NCBI GenBank assembly: GCA_964486745.1
Contig: CAZAOJ010000002.1
Location: forward strand, 2,958 to 66,957
DNA from: an uncultured Arcobacteraceae bacterium
Lineage (GTDB): Bacteria > Campylobacterota > Campylobacteria > Campylobacterales > Arcobacteraceae
Direction: 5' to 3'
Length of the DNA stretch: 64,000 bases
Both the position numbers and the translations under genes were made by a program. A model generated the notes under the pieces. It was not told where the DNA came from and made no database searches. It worked only from the letters and a program-made list of their open reading frames with translations. Of this stretch, positions 4,446-33,638 are shown one piece after another (within the stretch, counting starts at the first letter, position 1; each line of letters opens with the position of its first letter).

Positions 4446-5188
4446 GGTATTAAGTATCCAAAATCTTTTAATATATTTTTTGTTTTATTATTTAATATAA
4501 AATTGTAAAAGGCTTTTACTTCATCACTATTGTTACTATTTTTTAATATAACAATACCTTGATTTATAGGTGTATATAGCTTTGTATCTACATCTATATA
4601 ATTTATATTTTCTTTGTACATTGACATTTTAGGACTATATAGGGCTGATTTTGCAATAAAGCCAATATCAGCAGCAGTTTTTGCATACATAACTGTCTGA
4701 GAAATAGATTCACCATATATAAATTTATTTTTAATATCATTGTATATATGTGCATTTTTTAAAGCTTCTACAGTAGCTTTACCATAAGGTGCAGTTTTTG
4801 GATTTGCTATTGCAATTCTTTTGATATTTTTTTCTTCTAAAAGTTTCATTTTTAAAGAAAAATCTCTAGGTTTGTTACTAAAATAAGCTAATGAACCTTG
4901 GGCATAAATAACTGGTTTAGTTAAAGCAATACTATCTTTATATAAAGCTTGTGGATATTTCATATTTGCAGACATAAATATATCATAAGGGGCATTGTGT
5001 TTGATTTGTGCAGTTAATTTACCACTTCCACCAAGTATAACTCTTACTTTTATATTTGGATATTGCTTATTAAATTCTTTTATAATCTTTGCTATAGCAT
5101 ATGATACATTCGCTGCAACTGCAACTGTAATAGTTTTTGAAAATAAAATTGTAGAAAATAAAAAAAATACAAGAAATAATCTAGTCAC
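4442..5188 (-). CDS. modA: molybdate ABC transporter periplasmic substrate-binding protein
   Basis: 248 aa with signal peptide MTRLFLVFFLFSTILFS. ModA-like TVAVAANVSYA...GGSGKL...ANPKTAPYG motifs. First gene of the mod operon. Confidence 0.85.
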   Translation of the reverse strand: MTRLFLVFFLFSTILFSKTITVAVAANVSYAIAKIIKEFNKQYPNIKVRVILGGSGKLTAQIKHNAPYDIFMSANMKYPQALYKDSIALTKPVIYAQGSLAYFSNKPRDFSLKMKLLEEKNIKRIAIANPKTAPYGKATVEALKNAHIYNDIKNKFIYGESISQTVMYAKTAADIGFIAKSALYSPKMSMYKENINYIDVDTKLYTPINQGIVILKNSNNSDEVKAFYNFILNNKTKNILKDFGYLIP

Positions 5189-5393
5189 TTCATTAATCCT
5201 TATTAGATATAAAATTTACGTTCATTATACAATTAATAAGCTATTTTACAGTTTAGATTAGTTAGTATTTGCTACTTTTATACGAAAGTGTAAGATACAT
5301 ACTTTATTCAAAATTTTACTTTCAATCTTAATTGATGGAAAACAAAATGGACAACAAAAGAATGGAAAACGATACGAAGAGTAAAACTCTTAG

Positions 5394-24610: not shown

Positions 24611-25138
24611 ATGAAAAAATTATTTATTTTGTTGACATTAGTTGGTTCATTGTTATATGCATCAAATCCAGTTGCAGTACTTCAAACTACCCAAGGGGAT
24701 ATTGAAATAGAGTTAAGACCTGATTATGCTCCAAAGGCAGTTGAAAACTTTGTTACACATATTAAAAATGGTTATTATGATGGATTGATTTTTCATAGAA
24801 TTATTAGACAGTTTATGATTCAAGGTGGAGATCCAACTGGTACAGGAAGAGGTGGAGAATCTATTTGGGGTAAACCATTTAAAGATGAATTTGCACCAAA
24901 TGTAGTATTTGATAGATCTGGAATTTTAGCAATGGCAAATGCTGGACCAAATACAAATGGAAGTCAATTTTTTATTACAACGGTTCCAACTTCTTGGTTA
25001 AATGGAAGACATACAATATTTGGATATGTAAAAAAATCTTCTATGCCAGTAGTTAAAAAACTTGAAAATGTTCAAGTTGGATTTAGAGATAAACCTATAA
25101 AAGAACAAAAAATTATAAAAGCTTATATTAAAGAATAA
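24611..25138 (+). CDS. periplasmic cyclophilin-type peptidyl-prolyl isomerase
   Basis: Signal peptide, then FHRIIRQFMIQGGDP, MANAGPNTNGSQFFIT and HTIFG. Confidence 0.93.
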   Translation: MKKLFILLTLVGSLLYASNPVAVLQTTQGDIEIELRPDYAPKAVENFVTHIKNGYYDGLIFHRIIRQFMIQGGDPTGTGRGGESIWGKPFKDEFAPNVVFDRSGILAMANAGPNTNGSQFFITTVPTSWLNGRHTIFGYVKKSSMPVVKKLENVQVGFRDKPIKEQKIIKAYIKE

Positions 25139-25142
25139 CTAT

Positions 25143-25541
25143 ATGAAAAAAGTGTTGATTATGTGTACTGGTAATTCTTGTAGAAGTATTATTGGTGAAG
25201 CACTGATAAATAAAGAGTTAGATGGGATTGAAGCTTATAGTTGTGGTGTTAATCCAAGTGGTAAAGTAAATCAAAATGCAAAAAAGATATTAGTTCAAAA
25301 TGATGTATGGGATGATAAATATTATTCAAAACATTTAGATGAAGTTATTGATATAGAATTTGATTTAGTTGTAACTGTATGTGATCATGCAAATGAAACT
25401 TGTCCCATTTTTCCTAAAGTTACTGATAAAATTCATGTTGGGTTTGAAGATCCTGATGGAAAAGAATTTGATGCTTTTATAAAAACATATGATGAAATAA
25501 GAAATAAACTTTTACCAATAATAAAGAATAAATTAAATTAA
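25143..25541 (+). CDS. arsC: LMW-PTPase-family arsenate reductase
   Basis: P-loop CTGNSCRS at the N-terminus, conserved downstream Cys pair (VCDHANETCP), 132 aa. Confidence 0.8.
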   Translation: MKKVLIMCTGNSCRSIIGEALINKELDGIEAYSCGVNPSGKVNQNAKKILVQNDVWDDKYYSKHLDEVIDIEFDLVVTVCDHANETCPIFPKVTDKIHVGFEDPDGKEFDAFIKTYDEIRNKLLPIIKNKLN

Positions 25542-25637
25542 TATATATTAATTGTTTGATTAAGTTTTATAATTTAAGTTTCTATATATAAATTTCAGTT
25601 AGTATTATAAGAAATTTTTATATATGAAAGATAAATT

Positions 25638-26309
25638 ATGAACAAAATATTTCAATTTGGTCAAAAAATAGATCAGTATGAGTTTAAAGTAATCAATGAA
25701 AGAGATGCAAGAGCTAGTGCAGGAATAATGTTTTTATTTGGAATAATTACATTATTCTCTTTTATAATGACAAAAAATCTATTTTGGGCAAATTTATTTA
25801 CAATCACATTTATAATTGAGTTTATAATAAGGGTATTTGTAAATCCTATTTATGCACCATATATGATACTTGGTTCAATCATTGTTTCAAATCAAGAACC
25901 AGATTGGGTAGAAGCTAGTCCTAAGAAATTTGCATGGATATTAGGTGTAATTTTAGGTTTTATTATGAGTTATTTTATATTATATGATATTATGACTCCG
26001 GCACGACTTATTACCTGTTTAGTGTGTTTGGTTCTTCTTTATATGGAAAGTGTATTTGGTATATGTCTAGGATGTATAATATATAAAAAATTAAATGTTA
26101 AATTATATAAATGCCCTGGTGGAGTTTGTGAAATGACACAAAACAAAACTAGTAATAAAAATAAATATATTATTCTAGTTGGTTTTTTAGTACTTTTTTA
26201 TGGGGTATTTTATTCTCTTAAAACATATAAATATCACAATACAACTTCTTCAAATTTAACTCAAGAACAAATTGATGAGATGGAATTTGATAAAGAAGAA
26301 GATGAATAG
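25638..26309 (+). CDS. polytopic membrane protein (DUF4395-like) with C-terminal Cys cluster and extra TM
   Basis: 223 aa with four or more hydrophobic helices, then CLGCIIYKK...CPGGVC. Family assignment is from memory only. Confidence 0.5.
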   Translation: MNKIFQFGQKIDQYEFKVINERDARASAGIMFLFGIITLFSFIMTKNLFWANLFTITFIIEFIIRVFVNPIYAPYMILGSIIVSNQEPDWVEASPKKFAWILGVILGFIMSYFILYDIMTPARLITCLVCLVLLYMESVFGICLGCIIYKKLNVKLYKCPGGVCEMTQNKTSNKNKYIILVGFLVLFYGVFYSLKTYKYHNTTSSNLTQEQIDEMEFDKEEDE

Positions 26310-26403
26310 AATTTATATCTAAATTATGAATATATTCCATTTCAATAGATTATTGATATGGGCTATAAACAGATGTGGGTAAAACATAATTGTAATTAGT
26401 AAA

Positions 26404-26751
26404 TTATTTTTTATTAAAGTCAGTATCATAAATATATGATGCTATATCTTGTAAGTAGTCCTCTTCAAATCCTAGTGTTGGCATAATTTCATATTTATTA
26501 ATTGCACTACTCATTAAAGAACCTTCTTTATTTGGATTGCTAACCCATTTTGACATGTATTTAACAAAATCAACTTTATTAGGAAATGCTCTTATATAGT
26601 TTTTTTTAACTTCTTTCATAGATGGTGCAGAAATGTTTTCTGTTCTAAAATGACATGTAACACAATTTCCATTAAACAACAACTCACCAATATTATTTGA
26701 ACTATATGCAGTAGATATTGAAATTAAGAATAATATTATAAATTTATACAT
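26404..26751 (-). CDS. small periplasmic class I cytochrome c
   Basis: Signal peptide plus a single CVTCH haem motif and a distal Met (YEIMPTLG). 115 aa. Confidence 0.82.
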   Translation of the reverse strand: MYKFIILFLISISTAYSSNNIGELLFNGNCVTCHFRTENISAPSMKEVKKNYIRAFPNKVDFVKYMSKWVSNPNKEGSLMSSAINKYEIMPTLGFEEDYLQDIASYIYDTDFNKK

Positions 26752-26849
26752 AACTGGATTATATCACATTATATTAATAAAACAAATAAAAGAATTAAGT
26801 GTTTATTATGAAATATAAGGTAAAATTACAAAAAAATTAAGGATATAAA

Positions 26850-27005
26850 ATGGAAGAAAAAATATTAGCTTGTGATAATGATATATGTTTAAAAAAAGAT
26901 GAATGTGAAAGATATAGACTTTTCAAAGAAGGTGCAAAAGAATATAAAACTCATAATGGTAAACCACATAAAGGTTGTGGACAATTTATTAAAAATACAA
27001 AATAA
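26850..27005 (+). CDS. small Cys-containing hypothetical protein (51 aa, below the ORF-track cutoff)
   Basis: AAGGA 7 nt upstream of the ATG. Peptide MEEKILACDNDICLKKDECERYRLFKEGAKEYKTHNGKPHKGCGQFIKNTK* has four Cys. Lies in an otherwise empty 385-nt gap. Confidence 0.35.
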   Translation: MEEKILACDNDICLKKDECERYRLFKEGAKEYKTHNGKPHKGCGQFIKNTK

Positions 27006-27136
27006 TATAAATTTATATAAGTGGAAAATCATTTAAAGTATTTATTTAAATATATAAAGATATACTATTTAAACTAATCTTTAAAAAATAGTTATATAAA
27101 TAAAGCTATAAATTAATAATAAACTGGAGTGGATAT

Positions 27137-27505
27137 ATGGAAAATGTTATGAAAGATCTTTTGCCGCAAAATATAAGTAATATGAAAATTGATGTGGAAA
27201 AATTTATAGAACTTTTAAATAATAAAGAGGCTATCTTGGTTGATATTAGAATGCCATTTGAAACTGCAGTTTGGGGACTTAATTTTGGACTTAAAATACC
27301 AGCAAATGAATTACCAGATAATTTAGAAAAATTACCAAAAGATAAACTAATTGTAGTTGCTTGCCCAAAAACTGATAGGTCAATTATGGCAAGAACTTAT
27401 CTAGCTGCACTTGGATATGAGACAAAATATTTATCTGGTGGAATTTTAGGATTGGTAGAAAGACTAAAAGGTGGTAAAGCTAAAGATATAGACTTAAAGA
27501 GTTAA
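27137..27505 (+). CDS. single-domain rhodanese-like sulfurtransferase
   Basis: 122 aa. LVDIR...VVACPKTDRS active-site Cys loop, followed by A..L...GY. Confidence 0.75.
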   Translation: MENVMKDLLPQNISNMKIDVEKFIELLNNKEAILVDIRMPFETAVWGLNFGLKIPANELPDNLEKLPKDKLIVVACPKTDRSIMARTYLAALGYETKYLSGGILGLVERLKGGKAKDIDLKS

Positions 27506-27506
27506 T

Positions 27507-28109
27507 ATGTATCAAGTGAAATATGCAGGTCCAAGACCCATAATCTCCCAACATGGAATAACTTATAAAGATGGCAAAGAGGATAAATATATCTATCTTC
27601 AAATTGCAATTGAAATTTTAAAAGATATTGATTGTGATTATGAAAATATTAAATTTCACACACATGTAGTTAAAAATAAAGAGTTATCTCAAGAACAAAT
27701 TGATGAGATATTGTCTAAATATGAAAATGAACTAGAAGAACATATAAAAACGGAAGTTCAAAACTACAAAGAAAAAATAAAATGCGAAATAGAATCTGTC
27801 CAAAAAATGAAAAATATTAATGATATTGAAAAAAATATTTGGATTGAAAACATTAATATTATGACAGATTATAGAATACAGAGAGCTATAAATAAAATAT
27901 ATTATATGCATTGTATAAATGATATTAAATATATAATTCTTAAAAAAAGAATCAAAGAGATAGATACACCTTTTAATGAAAAATTTTGGCATGTATTAGA
28001 AACGATTCAAGGGGCATTAGAAAGTGGTAAGAAGTCTGTTTCAACAAAGCTTGAAGAGGTTACACTAGATAATGGCAATATGATTATGAAATTACACATA
28101 AATATATAA
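27507..28109 (+). CDS. hypothetical protein
   Basis: 200 aa ORF starting 1 nt after the rhodanese stop. Lys/Glu-rich, no recognisable motif. Confidence 0.5.
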   Translation: MYQVKYAGPRPIISQHGITYKDGKEDKYIYLQIAIEILKDIDCDYENIKFHTHVVKNKELSQEQIDEILSKYENELEEHIKTEVQNYKEKIKCEIESVQKMKNINDIEKNIWIENINIMTDYRIQRAINKIYYMHCINDIKYIILKKRIKEIDTPFNEKFWHVLETIQGALESGKKSVSTKLEEVTLDNGNMIMKLHINI

Positions 28110-28111
28110 AA

Positions 28112-29416
28112 ATGAAAACTACAAAAAGCTTAGGATTTAAAGAATTACTTGCAATTGCCATAGGTGGTATGGTTGGGGGTGGAATATTTACAATTTTAGG
28201 AATTTCAGTTTCTATGGTTGGGTTTTTGGCTCCGTTTGCTATTGCATTTGGTGGTATAATTGCTTGGTTTGCAGCATATTCATATGTGAAACTTGGTGTT
28301 TATTACAAAGATGAAGGTGCAACTTATGCTTTTTTTAAAAGAACATATCCAAATACCCATATGGCAGCTTCTTTTATAGGGTGGTATACAATATTTGGAT
28401 ATATAAGTACTTTATCTTTATATGCATATACATTTTCTGCTTATGCTTTAAGTGGTTTTGATTTTTCTCAAAATGAATTATTTAGAAAGCTTTTAGCTAT
28501 AAGTATCATTGTATTTTTTGCATTTGTGAATATTTGGAGTGTAAAAGGTATGGGAAAACTTGAAGATATTATGGTGTATTTAAAACTATTTATACTTTTT
28601 GTTATATCTATGGTGTTAATATTTTTTGCTAATGTTGATTTGAATAATTTTGTTTTAACTATTAAAAATGATTTTTCTTCAACTTCAATGATGAGTATTT
28701 TAATGGTTTCATCTATAACATTTGTAGCATATGAAGGGTTTCAATTAGTTATAAATGCTGTAAATGATATGGAAGATCCAGATATAAACATACCAAAAGC
28801 GATATATTGGGCAATTGTATTGGTTGCATTAATATATTTTATTATAGCTTTAAGTGCAATAGTTGCTATTCCTGTAGATGATTTGATTCAAAATAAAGAA
28901 TCTGCCTTAGCAACAGGAGCAGGACAAATTATGGGTAATCTAGGGCAAAATTTAGTAGTATTTGGAGCTATTTTAGCAACAAGTAGTGCTATTAATGGTA
29001 CATTATTTGGATCATCTCATCAAATGGCAAGAATAGCGCAAGATGGATATTTTCCAAAAATATTAATTAAAAGAAAAAATAATATTCCATATATGGCAAT
29101 TATAACTATGTCTGTAATTTCATCTTTACTTATATTGGTTGGTGGACTTCAACTTATTTTAGAGTTTGGAAGTATTACGTTTTTATTGGTATCTTTACTT
29201 ATGGCAATAGCAAATTTTAAAATAAGAACAAAAACAAATTCATCTTTTATTATTACTATAATTTCAATGTTTGGATTAAGTATTGGTGCATCTTTAATCA
29301 TCTATTATGAATATATAACAAATAAAGAACAACTATTATTTATTTTTATCTTATATATACTTTTAACATTAAGTGCATGGATATATGCAAATTTTATTAA
29401 AAATAAAATATCTTAA
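28112..29416 (+). CDS. APC-superfamily amino acid/polyamine permease
   Basis: 434 aa, ~12 TM, N-terminal IAIGGMVGGGIFTILG motif typical of the APC family. Confidence 0.8.
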   Translation: MKTTKSLGFKELLAIAIGGMVGGGIFTILGISVSMVGFLAPFAIAFGGIIAWFAAYSYVKLGVYYKDEGATYAFFKRTYPNTHMAASFIGWYTIFGYISTLSLYAYTFSAYALSGFDFSQNELFRKLLAISIIVFFAFVNIWSVKGMGKLEDIMVYLKLFILFVISMVLIFFANVDLNNFVLTIKNDFSSTSMMSILMVSSITFVAYEGFQLVINAVNDMEDPDINIPKAIYWAIVLVALIYFIIALSAIVAIPVDDLIQNKESALATGAGQIMGNLGQNLVVFGAILATSSAINGTLFGSSHQMARIAQDGYFPKILIKRKNNIPYMAIITMSVISSLLILVGGLQLILEFGSITFLLVSLLMAIANFKIRTKTNSSFIITIISMFGLSIGASLIIYYEYITNKEQLLFIFILYILLTLSAWIYANFIKNKIS

Positions 29417-30151
29417 ATGGAAATATATCTACTATATTTTTTTGTAACACTATTTTTTTCAACTTTATTCGCTATGGGTGGAGTTGGAAGTGCAGTTGCA
29501 CTTGTATCAATATTTCCAATGATGGGACAAAGTTTTGATCTTTCTAAGGCTTTAGCTTTATTTATAAATACATCTTCAATGATTAGTACATCTATTATGA
29601 ATTTTAAAAGAGGTATGTTAGATTTTAAATTTGCCATGCCTTTGGTTATTTCAGTTCTGATAGCAACACCTATTGGCGCAGTTTTATCTCAATATGTAAA
29701 TCATATATATTTACAGTGGCTATTAGTTTGTTTTTTATTAATTAGTGCTAGTTTACTTTTATTTGGTAAAAAAGAGGCCAAAACTGTATATACAAAAGTA
29801 TGGATATTATATTTTATAGGTTTTAGTGTTGGAATTATTTCTGGTATGCTTGGAGTTGGTGGTGGAAGTTTAATTATGCCACTTTTGATTTTACTTGGAT
29901 TTGATGCAAAAAAAGCTGCCTATGCTGTTAGTTTTGTAATACCCTTTTCAACTTTTGGTGCATTTTTGACATATCTTCAATTTGTTCAAATAGATTGGAT
30001 TTTATTAGGGGTTGTTACTGTTGCTGCACTTATTGGTGGATATATTGGTGGTAAAATTATGCACTATAAGTTGGATCAATCACAAGTAAAAAAACTTATT
30101 GCAATAGTTTTATATCTAGTTGCTATTAAAATGATTTTATCTTTGATTTAG
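29417..30151 (+). CDS. TauE/SafE-family anion exporter (DUF81)
   Basis: 244 aa, ~7-8 TM, with a repeated G-x-GG-G motif (AMGGVGSA; GMLGVGGGSLIMP). Confidence 0.75.
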   Translation: MEIYLLYFFVTLFFSTLFAMGGVGSAVALVSIFPMMGQSFDLSKALALFINTSSMISTSIMNFKRGMLDFKFAMPLVISVLIATPIGAVLSQYVNHIYLQWLLVCFLLISASLLLFGKKEAKTVYTKVWILYFIGFSVGIISGMLGVGGGSLIMPLLILLGFDAKKAAYAVSFVIPFSTFGAFLTYLQFVQIDWILLGVVTVAALIGGYIGGKIMHYKLDQSQVKKLIAIVLYLVAIKMILSLI

Positions 30152-30154
30152 TTT

Positions 30155-30841
30155 TTAAATATCTAATTGATCTAGTAAACTTTGAAAGTTTTTAATATGT
30201 ATTTTTTTTCTTGAGATATCAATAATCCCATCTTTTTTTAATTTTTGTAAACTTCTATTTACAACTTTTCTAACACTTCCAACCATAGCAGCTATATCTT
30301 CATGTTTTAAGTTATCAATTACATTTAACTTTGCAATCCCATTTTCAACTTGCGTAAATCTTGCAAATAGCTGTAAGACTCTTTGATAAACATCATAAAA
30401 AGATAAGCTTACAGCTAAGTTTTCCATTGATTTTAGTTTTGATGCCACATAAGAATAAAAATATTGTTTAAATTTTTCATCCTCATCTATCATCTTTTTT
30501 ACGTCATTCAAAGGAATTTGAACAATATGTGCATCCTCTAAAACTTCAGAGATATATTGATTTGGTTTACCATCTAAAAGAGAAACTACATCAAACATAT
30601 CTCCTCTACTTAGAAGATATAATGTTTGTTCTTTTGACGTATTAAAATCTATATCATAAATTTTTATTTTACCATCTAGTATGAAGTAAAAATATCTAGC
30701 TGTATCAGTATTATTTAAAGGGTCATCTCCAACTTTAAAAAAAAGATCTTTTTTATTTTTAATTTGAATTGGTAATTTATTTATTTGTTCTAAGACAAGA
30801 AGCTGATTATGATTATCTGCAGAGGTTATAATTTCGTTCAT
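30155..30841 (-). CDS. Crp/Fnr-family transcriptional regulator
   Basis: cNMP-binding beta-barrel (FFKVGD...YFILDGKIKIY...GDMFD) and C-terminal HTH (HEDIAAMVGSVRKVVNRSLQKLKKDG). No N-terminal Cys cluster, so it is not a classic O2-sensing Fnr. Confidence 0.85.
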   Translation of the reverse strand: MNEIITSADNHNQLLVLEQINKLPIQIKNKKDLFFKVGDDPLNNTDTARYFYFILDGKIKIYDIDFNTSKEQTLYLLSRGDMFDVVSLLDGKPNQYISEVLEDAHIVQIPLNDVKKMIDEDEKFKQYFYSYVASKLKSMENLAVSLSFYDVYQRVLQLFARFTQVENGIAKLNVIDNLKHEDIAAMVGSVRKVVNRSLQKLKKDGIIDISRKKIHIKNFQSLLDQLDI

Positions 30842-30852
30842 ATAGAATCATA

Positions 30853-30880
30853 CACAAAAATAGCTTAAGCTATTTTTGTG
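30853..30880 (-). terminator. perfect 12-bp palindrome (CACAAAAATAGC-TTAA-GCTATTTTTGTG) at the hsp20 operon 3' end and crp/fnr 5' region
   Basis: Read directly. It overlaps the last codons and stop of the 30870..31556 CDS and lies 12 nt upstream of the crp/fnr-family start. It could be a terminator or an operator. Confidence 0.45.
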
Positions 30881-31556
30881 TTTTAGGTTTATTTTTTGGT
30901 ATAGTTATATTTAATATACCTTTAGAGTATTTACTTGTAAGTTTATCTATATTTGCATCATTAGGTAATGTAAATATTCTACTAAAACTTTGTACATATC
31001 TCTCTTTTTGAATATAATTTGTATCTTTTTTATCTGTATTTTTTTGACTTGTTGCATTTATAGATAGTAAATGATCTTTTGCCTCAATTTTTATATCTTT
31101 TTCTTCAACACCAGGTATTTCTAAAGTTACTATATATTTATCTTTTTGCTCTTTTAAATCGGATAATGGAGCAAAACTCATAGAACTAAATGAATCTTTA
31201 AAAAATGGATCATTAGCAAACATTGAATTAAATGAAGCAAAACTTCTCATCATCTCATCTTGCATCTTTCTTATTTCTACAAAAGGATCATGAATTGTAT
31301 GTTCACTTTTTACATTTTGCACAAGTTCTTCCTTTTGCTCCTTTTTTTCAATTTTACTATTATCATTAATATTTGAAACAACTTTTTTTACTTCTAAATT
31401 ATCATCTGCAATCAAACCTACTGTTTCATTAGAATTAGTTGCAACATTACTAACATTATTTGTCTTTAAATCGTATATAAAATATCCCTGTATTGCTACA
31501 ACAAATGCCAAAATAAAAAGTAAAAATTTAAATCTTTGCGAACTATTTGTTCCCAT
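30870..31556 (-). CDS. Hsp20/alpha-crystallin protein with N-terminal membrane anchor or signal and long linker
   Basis: N-terminal hydrophobic helix FKFLLFILAFVVAIQGYFIY. C-terminal ACD reads DKYIVTLEIPGVEEKDIKIEAKDHLLSINA...ERYVQSFSRIFTLP...GILNITIPK. Confidence 0.8.
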   Translation of the reverse strand: MGTNSSQRFKFLLFILAFVVAIQGYFIYDLKTNNVSNVATNSNETVGLIADDNLEVKKVVSNINDNSKIEKKEQKEELVQNVKSEHTIHDPFVEIRKMQDEMMRSFASFNSMFANDPFFKDSFSSMSFAPLSDLKEQKDKYIVTLEIPGVEEKDIKIEAKDHLLSINATSQKNTDKKDTNYIQKERYVQSFSRIFTLPNDANIDKLTSKYSKGILNITIPKNKPKTQK

Positions 31557-31568
31557 TTTAAATCCTTT

Positions 31569-31994
31569 CTATTTTATTGAAATAGATTTAGGTTTAGATT
31601 TTTTAGTTTTTTGTAATTCTACTTCTAATCTACCATTTTCATATTTTGCATCAATTTTTTTAGTATCAATATTGTCTGGAATTGTATATCTTCTTTCAAA
31701 TTTTCCAAAAGAGCTTTCACAAATATAATAATCATCTCTACTTAACTCTTTTTGATACTTTCTAATTGCACTAACAACCAACATATTATCTTCTATCTTA
31801 AGATCAATGTCCTCCTTTTTAACACCAGGTAAATCAATCTCTACATGAAAACTACTATCATCTTTTTTTGCTAAATTTGAAAAAGGAAGATGACTAGCCA
31901 AGTTTTTAAAAGTTTGAGTCGCTTTTTGAGAAACTGACTCAATCCCTTTTTCAATATCTTGTGTTAAATCTTTTGCTTTATTAATTATTTCCAT
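31569..31994 (-). CDS. Hsp20/alpha-crystallin small heat-shock protein
   Basis: FHVEIDLPGVKKEDIDLKIEDNMLVVSA...FGKFERRYTIP...NGRLEVEL. Confidence 0.88.
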   Translation of the reverse strand: MEIINKAKDLTQDIEKGIESVSQKATQTFKNLASHLPFSNLAKKDDSSFHVEIDLPGVKKEDIDLKIEDNMLVVSAIRKYQKELSRDDYYICESSFGKFERRYTIPDNIDTKKIDAKYENGRLEVELQKTKKSKPKSISIK

Positions 31995-32010
31995 AATACA
32001 CCTCCTAAAT

Positions 32011-32463
32011 TTATTTAATTTTTATTTTTTTATTTTTTTGCTCTTTTTGTTTTTGTAATTTTGGAACTACTACTTCAAGTACACCATCTGTTGATGAAGC
32101 ATGAATATTTTCAATATCTACATCTTCAGGTAATGCAAATGATCTTTTAAATACTCCATAACTACTTTCTATTTTGTAGTAATTTTCCTCTTTTAGTTCA
32201 TCTTTTATTTTTCTTTCACCTGAAATAATAAGATTATTGTCCTCAATTTGAATATCAATATCATCCTTACTCATTCCTGGTAAATCAACTTCGATATGAT
32301 AAGCAAACTCACCTTCTCTAGTATTTACACTTGGATTAAAATCAGTTTGAAATGTATCCGCATTAACTACTGGATTAAATTCATTTAACATTGAATTTAA
32401 TATATCAAAACCTCTTCTAAATTCTCTAAATTGTGTATTTGGATTGTATCTTGTTACTAACAT
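32011..32463 (-). CDS. Hsp20/alpha-crystallin small heat-shock protein
   Basis: YHIEVDLPGMSKDDIDIQIEDNNLIISGER...YGVFKRSFALP...DGVLEVVVPK. Confidence 0.9.
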   Translation of the reverse strand: MLVTRYNPNTQFREFRRGFDILNSMLNEFNPVVNADTFQTDFNPSVNTREGEFAYHIEVDLPGMSKDDIDIQIEDNNLIISGERKIKDELKEENYYKIESSYGVFKRSFALPEDVDIENIHASSTDGVLEVVVPKLQKQKEQKNKKIKIK

Positions 32464-32605
32464 TTTAAACTCCTTGTTTTTTATTTAATGAAATTCTATA
32501 TAATTTTATAAAATAGTTCTGCCACTTAGGTAGCATTTTGAGGAATTTCCAATTTTTCATTAAGTATATAAATCATATAATCTAAAAATAACAAAAGGAA
32601 TAACT

Positions 32606-33637
32606 ATGCAATACCCAACTACACTTAAAGATTCAAACTCTTTATTGGCAAAATATCTTACCCCAGAAATTTTTGAGAAATTAAAAGATAAAGTTACATC
32701 AAATGGTTTTACATTACAACAAGCAATAAATTCAGGTGTACAAAACCCAGATAGTGGAATTGGTGTATATGCTGGAGATGAAGAATCATACGAGATCTTT
32801 GATCTATTGTTTGATCCTATTATTCAAGAGTATCATGGGTTTAATAAGAATGATAAACATAAATCAAACTTAGATATAAGTCAGTTAAATATTTCAAATC
32901 CAGATCCAAAAAATGAATATATCTTATCAACTCGTATTAGGGTAGGAAGAAATGTAAAAGATATGCCATTAGGACCAGCTATTAGTAATACGCAAAGAGA
33001 TCAAATAGAAAAGGATGTATCAGATATATTAAGTAAATTTGATGGTAATTTAGCTGGAAAATATTTTCCGTTAAATAATATGAGTAAAGAGGATCAAGAA
33101 TCATTAATAAAAGATCATTTCTTATTCAAAGAGGGAGATAGATTTCTAGATGCAGCTGGACTTAATGCAGATTGGCCAAATGGAAGAGGTATATTTCATA
33201 ATAATGATAAAACATTTTTAGTATGGATTAATGAAGAGGATCAATTAAGAATTATCTCTATGCAAAGTGGCGCAGATATTAAAGAAGTATTTACAAGGTT
33301 AGTAGATGCAATTAATAAAATAGAAAAACAAATACCATTTTCTTATAACGATCATTTAGGGTTTATTACAAGTTGTCCTACAAATTTAGGAACGGCTATG
33401 AGAGCTAGTGTCCATATAAAGTTACCAAACTTAGGTTCTAATATGGAACAGTTTAAAGAAATTGCAAATAAATATAATGTACAAATCAGAGGTATACATG
33501 GTGAACACTCTAATAGTGAAGGTGGCATTTATGATATATCTAATAAAAGAAGATTAGGGGTTACAGAAGTTCAGTGTGTGCAAGATATGTATGATGGTAT
33601 TGTTGCTCTTATAAAAGCAGAAAAAGAGCTAGAATAG
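32606..33637 (+). CDS. eukaryote-type arginine kinase (two-domain phosphagen kinase)
   Basis: The full N-terminal guanidino-specificity domain is present (LAKYLTPEIFEKLKDK.T..GFTLQQAINSGVQNPDSGIGVYAGDEESY). The catalytic domain has STRIRVGRN, NEEDQLRIISMQ, CPTNLGTAMRASVH and RGIHGEHS. Confidence 0.9.
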   Translation: MQYPTTLKDSNSLLAKYLTPEIFEKLKDKVTSNGFTLQQAINSGVQNPDSGIGVYAGDEESYEIFDLLFDPIIQEYHGFNKNDKHKSNLDISQLNISNPDPKNEYILSTRIRVGRNVKDMPLGPAISNTQRDQIEKDVSDILSKFDGNLAGKYFPLNNMSKEDQESLIKDHFLFKEGDRFLDAAGLNADWPNGRGIFHNNDKTFLVWINEEDQLRIISMQSGADIKEVFTRLVDAINKIEKQIPFSYNDHLGFITSCPTNLGTAMRASVHIKLPNLGSNMEQFKEIANKYNVQIRGIHGEHSNSEGGIYDISNKRRLGVTEVQCVQDMYDGIVALIKAEKELE

Positions 33638-33638
33638 T

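Follow-up and report, generated by a model that had tools for sequence, protein, structure and literature searches.

The heat-shock regulators known from the Campylobacterota, HrcA and HspR, are repressors, and acting at their operators (CIRCE and HAIR, respectively) they control dnaK, clpB and related genes. Class II activators of the CRP/FNR family, such as CRP and FNR of Escherichia coli and the cyanobacterial NtcA, combine a cyclic nucleotide (cNMP)-binding-like domain with a Crp-type helix-turn-helix (HTH) and serve carbon, oxygen and nitrogen metabolism. Here, we analyze a window of 64,000 nt from an uncultured Arcobacteraceae bacterium (positions 2,958 to 66,957 of contig CAZAOJ010000002.1, assembly GCA_964486745.1), in which an operon of three small heat-shock protein (sHSP) genes and a Crp/Fnr-family regulator gene stands back to back with the gene of an arginine kinase (AK). 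The locus is probably best explained by two modules, one of them built around a Crp/Fnr-type activator of a proteostasis regulon, with both DNA binding and activation read from sequence features, and the other being the kinase.

The predicted system is similar to HrcA-CIRCE and HspR-HAIR in controlling dnaK, clpB and related genes, and differs from them in its protein family, its operator and probably its sign, which would be activation. The CRP-family protein DdrI of Deinococcus radiodurans, a distant lineage, reportedly affects heat and other stress responses and recognizes a CRP-like site. A Crp/Fnr-type heat-shock regulator in Campylobacterota was not found in the literature, where our coverage was incomplete and gives no proof of novelty; the stress regulon proposed here from comparative genomics is apparently undescribed. 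Regarding the kinase, published reports list two-domain AKs from Sulfurovum, Nitratifractor, Desulfotalea, Myxococcus and Moritella, and include enzymology for the S. lithotrophicum and D. psychrophila enzymes. PMC11492440 credits the description of an AK clade of Epsilonproteobacteria to Suzuki 2013 and Fraga 2019, and in its summary 'cluster A' of Suzuki 2013 comprises the Sulfurovum lithotrophicum AK, Nitratifractor, Moritella and Oceanithermus.

The hsp20-crp operon and its predicted operator

Proteins were assigned by profile searches (Pfam, NCBIfam) and by comparison with solved structures, and all positions are those of the window. The source genome is designated G000 and its contigs carry C-numbers, while L-numbers denote loci fetched for comparison. 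An initial annotation had proposed five open reading frames (ORFs) with a 142-nt divergent gap between AK and hsp20A, and both the ORFs and the gap (32464-32605) were confirmed:

30155-30841, minus strand: Crp/Fnr-family regulator, 228 aa, last gene of the operon (PF00027 and PF13545)
30870-31556, minus strand: hsp20C, 228 aa (PF00011 at residues 134-227)
31569-31994, minus strand: hsp20B, sHSP of 141 aa, second gene of the operon (PF00011, 3.4e-26)
32011-32463, minus strand: hsp20A, sHSP of 150 aa, first gene of the operon (PF00011, 3.2e-27)
32493-32498, minus strand: predicted -10 box of hsp20A, TAGAAT, 21 nt downstream of the operator
32520-32535: predicted 16-bp palindromic operator, TGCCACTTAGGTAGCA on the plus strand, consensus TGCTACTTAAGTAGCA
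32606-33637, plus strand: AK, arginine (phosphagen) kinase of 343 aa with two domains (PF02807 and PF00217)

The alpha-crystallin domain PF00011 was found by Pfam in all three Hsp20 proteins (E = 7.5e-22 to 3.2e-27). Upstream of hsp20A, the palindrome reads TGCTACCTAAGTGGCA on the hsp20 strand (32535-32520), and TAGAAT (32498-32493) follows exactly 21 nt on. The same motif and spacing recur at L022 and L173 and in genomes of unrelated families (G030, G038). The source genome contains two perfect copies of the consensus against 0.03 expected (12 half-site bases), and a weight-matrix scan returned four intergenic sites of at least 24.9 bits, the next best scoring 16.1:

C2 (window 32520-32535): hsp20A downstream, AK divergent; -10 box TAGAAT at 21 nt
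C42:5220: dnaK downstream, within the 88-nt grpE-dnaK gap (5154-5241) of hrcA-grpE-dnaK; -10 box TATACT at 21 nt
C57:59: M48/HtpX protease gene downstream; -10 box TAGAAT at 21 nt
C15:28382: gene of a secreted YfdX-family protein downstream; -10 box TAAAAT at 21 nt

The motif is equally regular among 32 metagenomic operons, 22 of which combine a site of at least 18 bits with a -10 box, in most cases a perfect TATAAT, exactly 21 nt away; in nine more the spacing is unchanged and the motif is a weaker variant, TGCYACCTARGGGGCA, and one operon has no site. Over all comparisons, a -10-like hexamer stands 21 nt from every qualified site, in dozens of promoters. The site at C11:16438, with 16.1 bits and a perfect TATAAT at 21 nt, precedes the gene of a Trx2-type thioredoxin with an N-terminal zinc ribbon, which may be an additional member of the regulon.

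Two other signals considered in the 142-nt gap were discarded. A sigma-54 promoter reading of TGGCAG-N5-TTTT was rejected because there is no GC at -12. An RNA thermometer in the hsp20A leader was likewise rejected, the leader being only ~25 nt long with the inferred -10 box; the predicted start falls in or close to the conserved TTCRTTAAATAAA, which is thus not part of a leader able to fold.

Co-occurrence of regulator and operator

Regulator homologues (E ≤ 1e-25) and a composite pattern, consisting of the palindrome core, 21 nt and TANNNT, were scored in 251 Campylobacterales genomes. A regulator homologue is present in 104 genomes (~40%), 70 of which contain the composite site and 34 of which do not, while the 147 genomes lacking the regulator divide into 17 with and 130 without the site (Fisher odds ratio 15.7, p = 3e-20). 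Two or more composite sites occur in 39 genomes, and the regulator is found in 37 of these. The reversed pattern, used as a control, matched in 5 genomes. With the -10 core shifted to 26 nt there were 46 matches, compared with 177 at 21 nt, and zero in G000; at least 12 of the 46 are true 21-nt sites in which TATAAT is trailed by a second TANNNT.

Counts of the palindrome by itself with up to two mismatches are inflated by coding matches, also in many genomes without the regulator, and intergenic context together with the -10 spacing was required. Sampled sites in regulator-carrying genomes are intergenic and mostly at the 21-nt spacing, and precede hsp20 and clpB in G038, yfdX, clpB, dnaK and a 99-aa gene in G040, hsp20 and two small genes in G029, and hsp20 in G030. 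In seven regulator-less genomes, all nine sampled palindrome matches fall inside long ORFs and lack a -10 box. The site lies directly beside the regulator gene in more than 20 genomes from at least six families and in two gene orders, and the crp-adjacent site precedes yfdX-DUF1931-DUF308 in one family and hsp20 in another. Other families add targets such as grpE-dnaK, clpB and the genes of a 1-Cys peroxiredoxin, Usp and a membrane protein of the EI24 family.

Nature of the regulator and probable mode of action

The regulator combines a cNMP-binding-type beta-barrel (PF00027, 1e-12) with a Crp-type HTH (PF13545, 2.8e-12), the domain pair of the class II activators. Its matches to Mycobacterium tuberculosis CRP, NtcA and SdrP are remote (best solved structure E = 3e-11), and it scores far under every cut-off of the NCBIfam CRP, FNR and NtcA equivalogs. 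The residues with which M. tuberculosis CRP contacts cAMP, GE...RTS, are DV...NQY in the regulator, and the 228-aa protein contains zero cysteines. Identification as CRP proper, the cAMP receptor, was rejected on the replaced contact residues, and identification as FNR proper, the [4Fe-4S] oxygen sensor, because there is no cysteine; the sensor is thus predicted to be neither of the cAMP type nor an FNR-type cluster. Apart from lacking these residues, the protein is set off from the described class II activators by its half-site (TGCTAC, compared with TGTGA or TTGAT), by a Lys at the position of CRP Glu181 in the recognition helix (GSVRKVVNR), and by a predicted regulon of chaperones and proteases.

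A cAMP-independent dimer of this type would bind TGCTAC-TTAA-GTAGC(A) centered at about -41.5, activate in the class II manner and autoregulate its own operon. In the source genome it would also drive the internal dnaK promoter, htpX and yfdX, and in other families the clpB, DUF1931, DUF308, Usp and peroxiredoxin genes, the whole running alongside the classical HrcA/CIRCE system. The 16-bp site has two-fold symmetry, which suits a Crp/Fnr dimer, and its predicted center is at about -41.5 with no -35 hexamer, -10 boxes and starts being predictions throughout. As in the class II activators, the symmetric site would take the place of the -35 element. Since an invariant position at about -41.5 without a -35 hexamer is a class II signature, an autoregulated activator is favored over a repressor, and we consider activation the likely mode. 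The broader proposal, an undescribed cAMP- and Fe-S-independent Crp/Fnr-family master activator of a heat-shock/proteostasis regulon in ~40% of Campylobacterales genomes, appears reasonably plausible from the same comparisons, and we lean towards it.

Several points weigh against this interpretation. No exact composite match was found in 34 regulator-positive genomes; their operators may have diverged, their assemblies may be incomplete, or their homologues may be paralogues that pass the 1e-25 cut-off. Each of the 17 regulator-negative genomes has a single match, or 2-3 in two cases, some of these being true-looking sites in incomplete genomes. Both the -10 boxes and the transcription starts were predicted from AT-rich DNA, and an operator that overlaps the -35 region would be just as compatible with repression, the mode of HrcA and HspR.

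The genomes that break the pairing in either direction would be accounted for if some other factor bound the palindrome and the Crp-family gene merely traveled with the hsp20 or yfdX genes. This is very improbable given that the site adjoins crp in two gene orders and before differing targets, that qualified sites are missing from the sampled regulator-less genomes, and that the symmetry of the site is that expected for a Crp/Fnr dimer. A more serious alternative, yet still an unlikely one, is that the Crp-family protein is a repressor that blocks the -35 region and is released on stress, like HrcA and HspR. The overlap of the operator with the -35 region and the precedent of the known Campylobacterota regulators would agree with this, and promoters of Campylobacterota often need only a -10 box. 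A repressor, however, does not readily explain why the 21-nt spacing is kept across many non-homologous promoters in at least six families, a constancy typical of the stereospecific contact with RNA polymerase made by class II CRP/FNR activators; the missing -35 hexamer and the precedent within the protein family also lean towards activation.

Relation to HrcA and organization of the operon

The activator proposed here would share its territory with the classical system. The source genome has hrcA, with CIRCE elements at hrcA, at clpB and in a further three places. CIRCE stands at the start of hrcA-grpE-dnaK and the new operator in the grpE-dnaK gap, which suggests that two systems control dnaK. 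The clpB gene on C82 of the source genome is preceded by CIRCE-like and HAIR-like elements without the new operator, whereas clpB has the new operator in G038, G040 and G171, so that membership of the regulon varies by lineage.

Among 46 loci fetched with the regulator, the recurrent unit is hsp20A-hsp20B-(hsp20C or secreted YfdX)-crp, and the order crp->hsp20A-B was also met; AK is present at only two of the 46. The hsp20C product is built of an N-terminal hydrophobic helix (top 19-residue hydropathy window of 2.2 at residues 9-27), a linker and the alpha-crystallin domain. The third slot of the operon is occupied either by this membrane-anchored protein or by a secreted YfdX-family protein (L183, L188, L216), which suggests that it supplies an envelope-facing chaperone. 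Between the last two genes lies a further conserved element:

30852-30881, minus strand: hairpin with a 13-bp stem (-16 kcal/mol, z = -5.8)

The hairpin, ACACAAAAATAGC-TTAA-GCTATTTTTGTGT, has a perfect stem and extends over the hsp20C stop and the 28 nt that separate it from crp. Both L022 and L173 retain the hairpin, L022 with one compensatory pair change, and it may set the ratio of regulator to sHSP expression. In L022, the hairpin core GTAGC-TTAA-GCTAC consists of the operator half-sites in swapped order.

Within the Arcobacteraceae the regulator is rare, with no homologue at E ≤ 1e-10 in 24 other genomes of the family, which is consistent with a published remark that A. butzleri is without FNR/CRP-family regulators. 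Homologues 35-45% identical occur in other families of the Campylobacterales, and vent and marine metagenomes hold more than 100 clusters at 68-77% identity. From its gene content and distribution, the hsp20A-B-C-crp operon is, as far as the genomes tell, a widespread and self-contained stress module.

The arginine kinase

The 343-aa protein was earlier described as a complete two-domain phosphagen kinase bearing the signature motifs of the family and distinct from McsB, a description that the searches bear out in each part. The N-domain PF02807 covers residues 9-74 (E = 5.7e-32, 110 bits against a cut-off of 25.7) and the catalytic domain PF00217 residues 133-341 (1.5e-80). The specificity region comprises SGV (43-45) and DSGIGVY (49-55), and the catalytic motifs are STRIRVGR (108-115), NEEDQLRIISM (209-219), CPTNLGT with the reactive Cys (257-263), a further motif position at 265-270, and IRGIHGEHS (294-302). 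The loop DSGIGVY is of the arginine type and aligns with DSGVGVY of Anthopleura AK. We take the loop D-S-G-x-G-x-Y to correspond to Limulus residues 62-68, and the Val-to-Ile change presumably falls at a position that touches the substrate via the backbone. Among solved structures, the protein comes closest to true arginine kinases, namely Anthopleura 4rf6 (~1e-124 per domain, with ~56% identity to the domains) and those of arthropods (~1e-130).

McsB, the protein-arginine kinase of the Firmicutes CtsR regulon, has a homologous catalytic domain and likewise a genomic tie to heat-shock genes, which might suggest that the window kinase acts on proteins, tagging damaged ones with phosphoarginine in the heat-shock response. 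McsB, however, lacks PF02807, while the protein studied here has the full N-terminal small-substrate domain with its specificity loop. Matches to McsB are confined to the catalytic domain at 1e-25 to 1e-27, far from the 56% identity to true AKs, and the NCBIfam McsB models give 90-165 bits against cut-offs of 381-679 (NF002194, 164 against 385; NF053707, 143 against 500). With the N-domain present and every McsB cut-off failed, identification as McsB was rejected, and since the adjacency to heat-shock genes is also not conserved (see below), a role as protein kinase is hardly credible. By all sequence criteria the protein is a genuine bacterial arginine kinase of the EC 2.7.3.3 type, which would phosphorylate free arginine, with phosphoarginine acting as an ATP buffer; for one member of its clade, S. 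lithotrophicum AK, the literature reports activity.

The view that true AKs are known in only a handful of bacteria is outdated, the window protein having hundreds of close bacterial homologues that already bear the NCBI name 'phosphagen kinase'. A protein search returned at least 120 clusters at ≥72% identity, several under NCBI or JGI names such as 'phosphagen kinase [Sulfurimonas sp.]' or 'arginine kinase', and PF02807 was found in 10 of 41 related genomes. A scan of species genomes in the Genome Taxonomy Database (GTDB) found at least 80 loci in several phyla at 53-75% identity. These include Arcobacteraceae (Arcobacter sp. 15-2, Poseidonibacter ostreae, Halarcobacter), other Campylobacterota (Sulfurimonas, Sulfurovum, Sulfurospirillum), Flavobacteriaceae of the Bacteroidota (including Polaribacter), the Gammaproteobacteria Shewanella sp. 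DAU334 and Psychromonas, a Deinococcota bin and Candidatus Uhrbacteria. Identity to bacterial homologues of other genera, families and phyla is 62-78%.

The horizontal spread suspected in the initial annotation is borne out by the patchy distribution and by a maximum-likelihood tree that contradicts broadly vertical descent. In this tree, which includes only few eukaryotic sequences, 98 bacterial AKs form one group (SH-aLRT 80) beside the cnidarian AK. Families and phyla are thoroughly mixed within the group, which indicates frequent transfer from bacterium to bacterium, and the Arcobacteraceae AKs require at least nine changes on well-supported branches. The window AK clusters with L022 (87% identity) and L173 (76%; SH-aLRT 95), followed by Sulfurimonas-labeled proteins at 76-78%, and the Arcobacter and Poseidonibacter AKs are only 66-68% identical. 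The enzyme is thus eukaryote-like in sequence, but its immediate ancestry, as reconstructed from the tree, is bacterial, and the gene would have been gained by transfer between bacteria and not straight from a eukaryote.

Compared with the published cluster A, the window AK has the same two domains, all catalytic motifs and the same patchy, horizontally transferred spread, and sequences from Sulfurovum, Sulfurimonas and Deinococcota share its clade. There is no substantial difference in the enzyme; its place beside a stress operon is lineage-specific. The window AK is a further member of an established family, and the clade is far larger than the 'handful' of the literature.

Three other sets of homologues extend the picture of the family. 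Same-genus G002 has an AK 65-68% identical, split over two contig ends (C216, C25) in a different context, and is without a homologue of the window regulator; members of the genus apparently gained AK in independent events. Two Candidatus Uhrbacteria genomes of the Candidate Phyla Radiation (CPR; L169, L170) encode two-domain homologues with 53-54% identity on a very long branch. On a 6.4-kb metagenome contig (L245, JGI Ga0401699_0015096), four to five AK genes or fragments stand in tandem, one product being a 495-aa protein to which another catalytic-domain piece is added, and these sequences nest in the bacterial clade on a long branch.

Adjacency of the kinase and the stress operon

The kinase and the sHSP operon had been proposed to form a stress island that combines ATP buffering with holdases. 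Of this proposal the shared 142-nt region stands, but the functional link is weak because the adjacency is confined to three near relatives. Outside the window, the order murE-rmuC-AK<>hsp20A-B-C-crp (back-to-back genes marked <>) was found only at L022/L023 (87% AK identity) and L173, and these were the only cases of conserved AK-sHSP linkage in a search that covered 10 relatives, 80 genomes with species names and the nearest homologues from metagenomes. In 10 related genomes, hsp20, the window-type crp, rmuC and tauE are absent within ~6 kb of AK (tblastn, phmmer), and AK homologues at 77-78% identity adjoin GGDEF or CZB signaling genes. At some 90 other AK loci, neither an hsp20 gene nor an sHSP-linked Crp-family gene lies nearby. 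No operator of at least 13 bits was found in any of 88 regions upstream of AK, and neither CIRCE nor HAIR in any of 90. The commonest neighbor of AK is a gene for an ArgB-like amino-acid kinase (PF00696; 11 of 90 loci, e.g. L094:822-1688), which fits a role of AK with free arginine and hints at arginine supply.

The surroundings give the pairing a plausible origin. In same-genus G001, the gene of a peptidyl-prolyl isomerase (PPIase; orthologue of window 24611-25138) lies directly beside rmuC, and the ~8.5 kb that separate the two in the window therefore constitute an accessory block:

25139-33638: accessory block with rhodanese, a 200-aa ORF, APC permease, TauE, crp, hsp20CBA and AK

L173 has a shorter block, without the permease and TauE. 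By this comparison the region is a variable accessory hotspot, and the AK/hsp20 pairing within it is, as the gene orders indicate, a recent and lineage-restricted juxtaposition. Two independently acquired accessory modules, AK and the hsp20-crp operon, would stand back to back here, their juxtaposition having arisen once, in one Arcobacteraceae lineage.

On the kinase side of the gap lies a second predicted promoter:

32554-32581, plus strand: predicted AK promoter, TTTTCA-16 nt-TATAAT, 10/12 consensus match

The distance from the operator to the predicted AK TATAAT is 40 nt in the window, 41 in L022 and 39 in L173, placing the operator center at about -60.5, -61.5 and -59.5, respectively, from the predicted AK start. 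Such distances are compatible with class I activation of the predicted promoter, and all three taxa with this gene order have an identical predicted -10 box with identical flanks. One operator could then act on the two divergent promoters, in the class II manner at -41.5 for hsp20A and near the classical class I position, at about -61, for AK, so that phosphoarginine buffering would be induced together with the holdases and DnaK and give ATP for refolding. The arrangement is kept in three diverged taxa with AKs 76-87% identical, and stress induction of AK is reported for eukaryotes in reviews.

We nevertheless regard such an integrated island as unlikely. G038 has both the regulator and AK, yet its AK is unlinked to the operator, as it is at 88 other AK loci, and ~30 hsp20-crp operons have no AK. 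The AK-side spacing varies by a nucleotide in either direction among the three taxa, and the predicted AK promoter already looks strong, which speaks against a dependence of AK on the regulator. Moreover, the commonest neighbor of AK elsewhere is not a stress gene. Co-regulation of AK by the operator is accordingly judged doubtful from these comparisons, and the full statement, an undescribed activator regulon that has captured AK via a shared bidirectional operator, is improbable.

Implications for stress control in the Campylobacterota

The kinase by itself adds little, and the main value of the locus lies in the neighboring regulon with its defined 16-bp site. If the proposed activator is real, it would constitute a third and probably positive arm of heat-shock control in the Campylobacterota, found in vent and marine lineages, absent from those families of the Campylobacterales without the regulator and rare in the Arcobacteraceae. 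The window itself would serve as a natural experiment on whether a horizontally gained energy-buffering enzyme can join a regulon by landing beside its operator.

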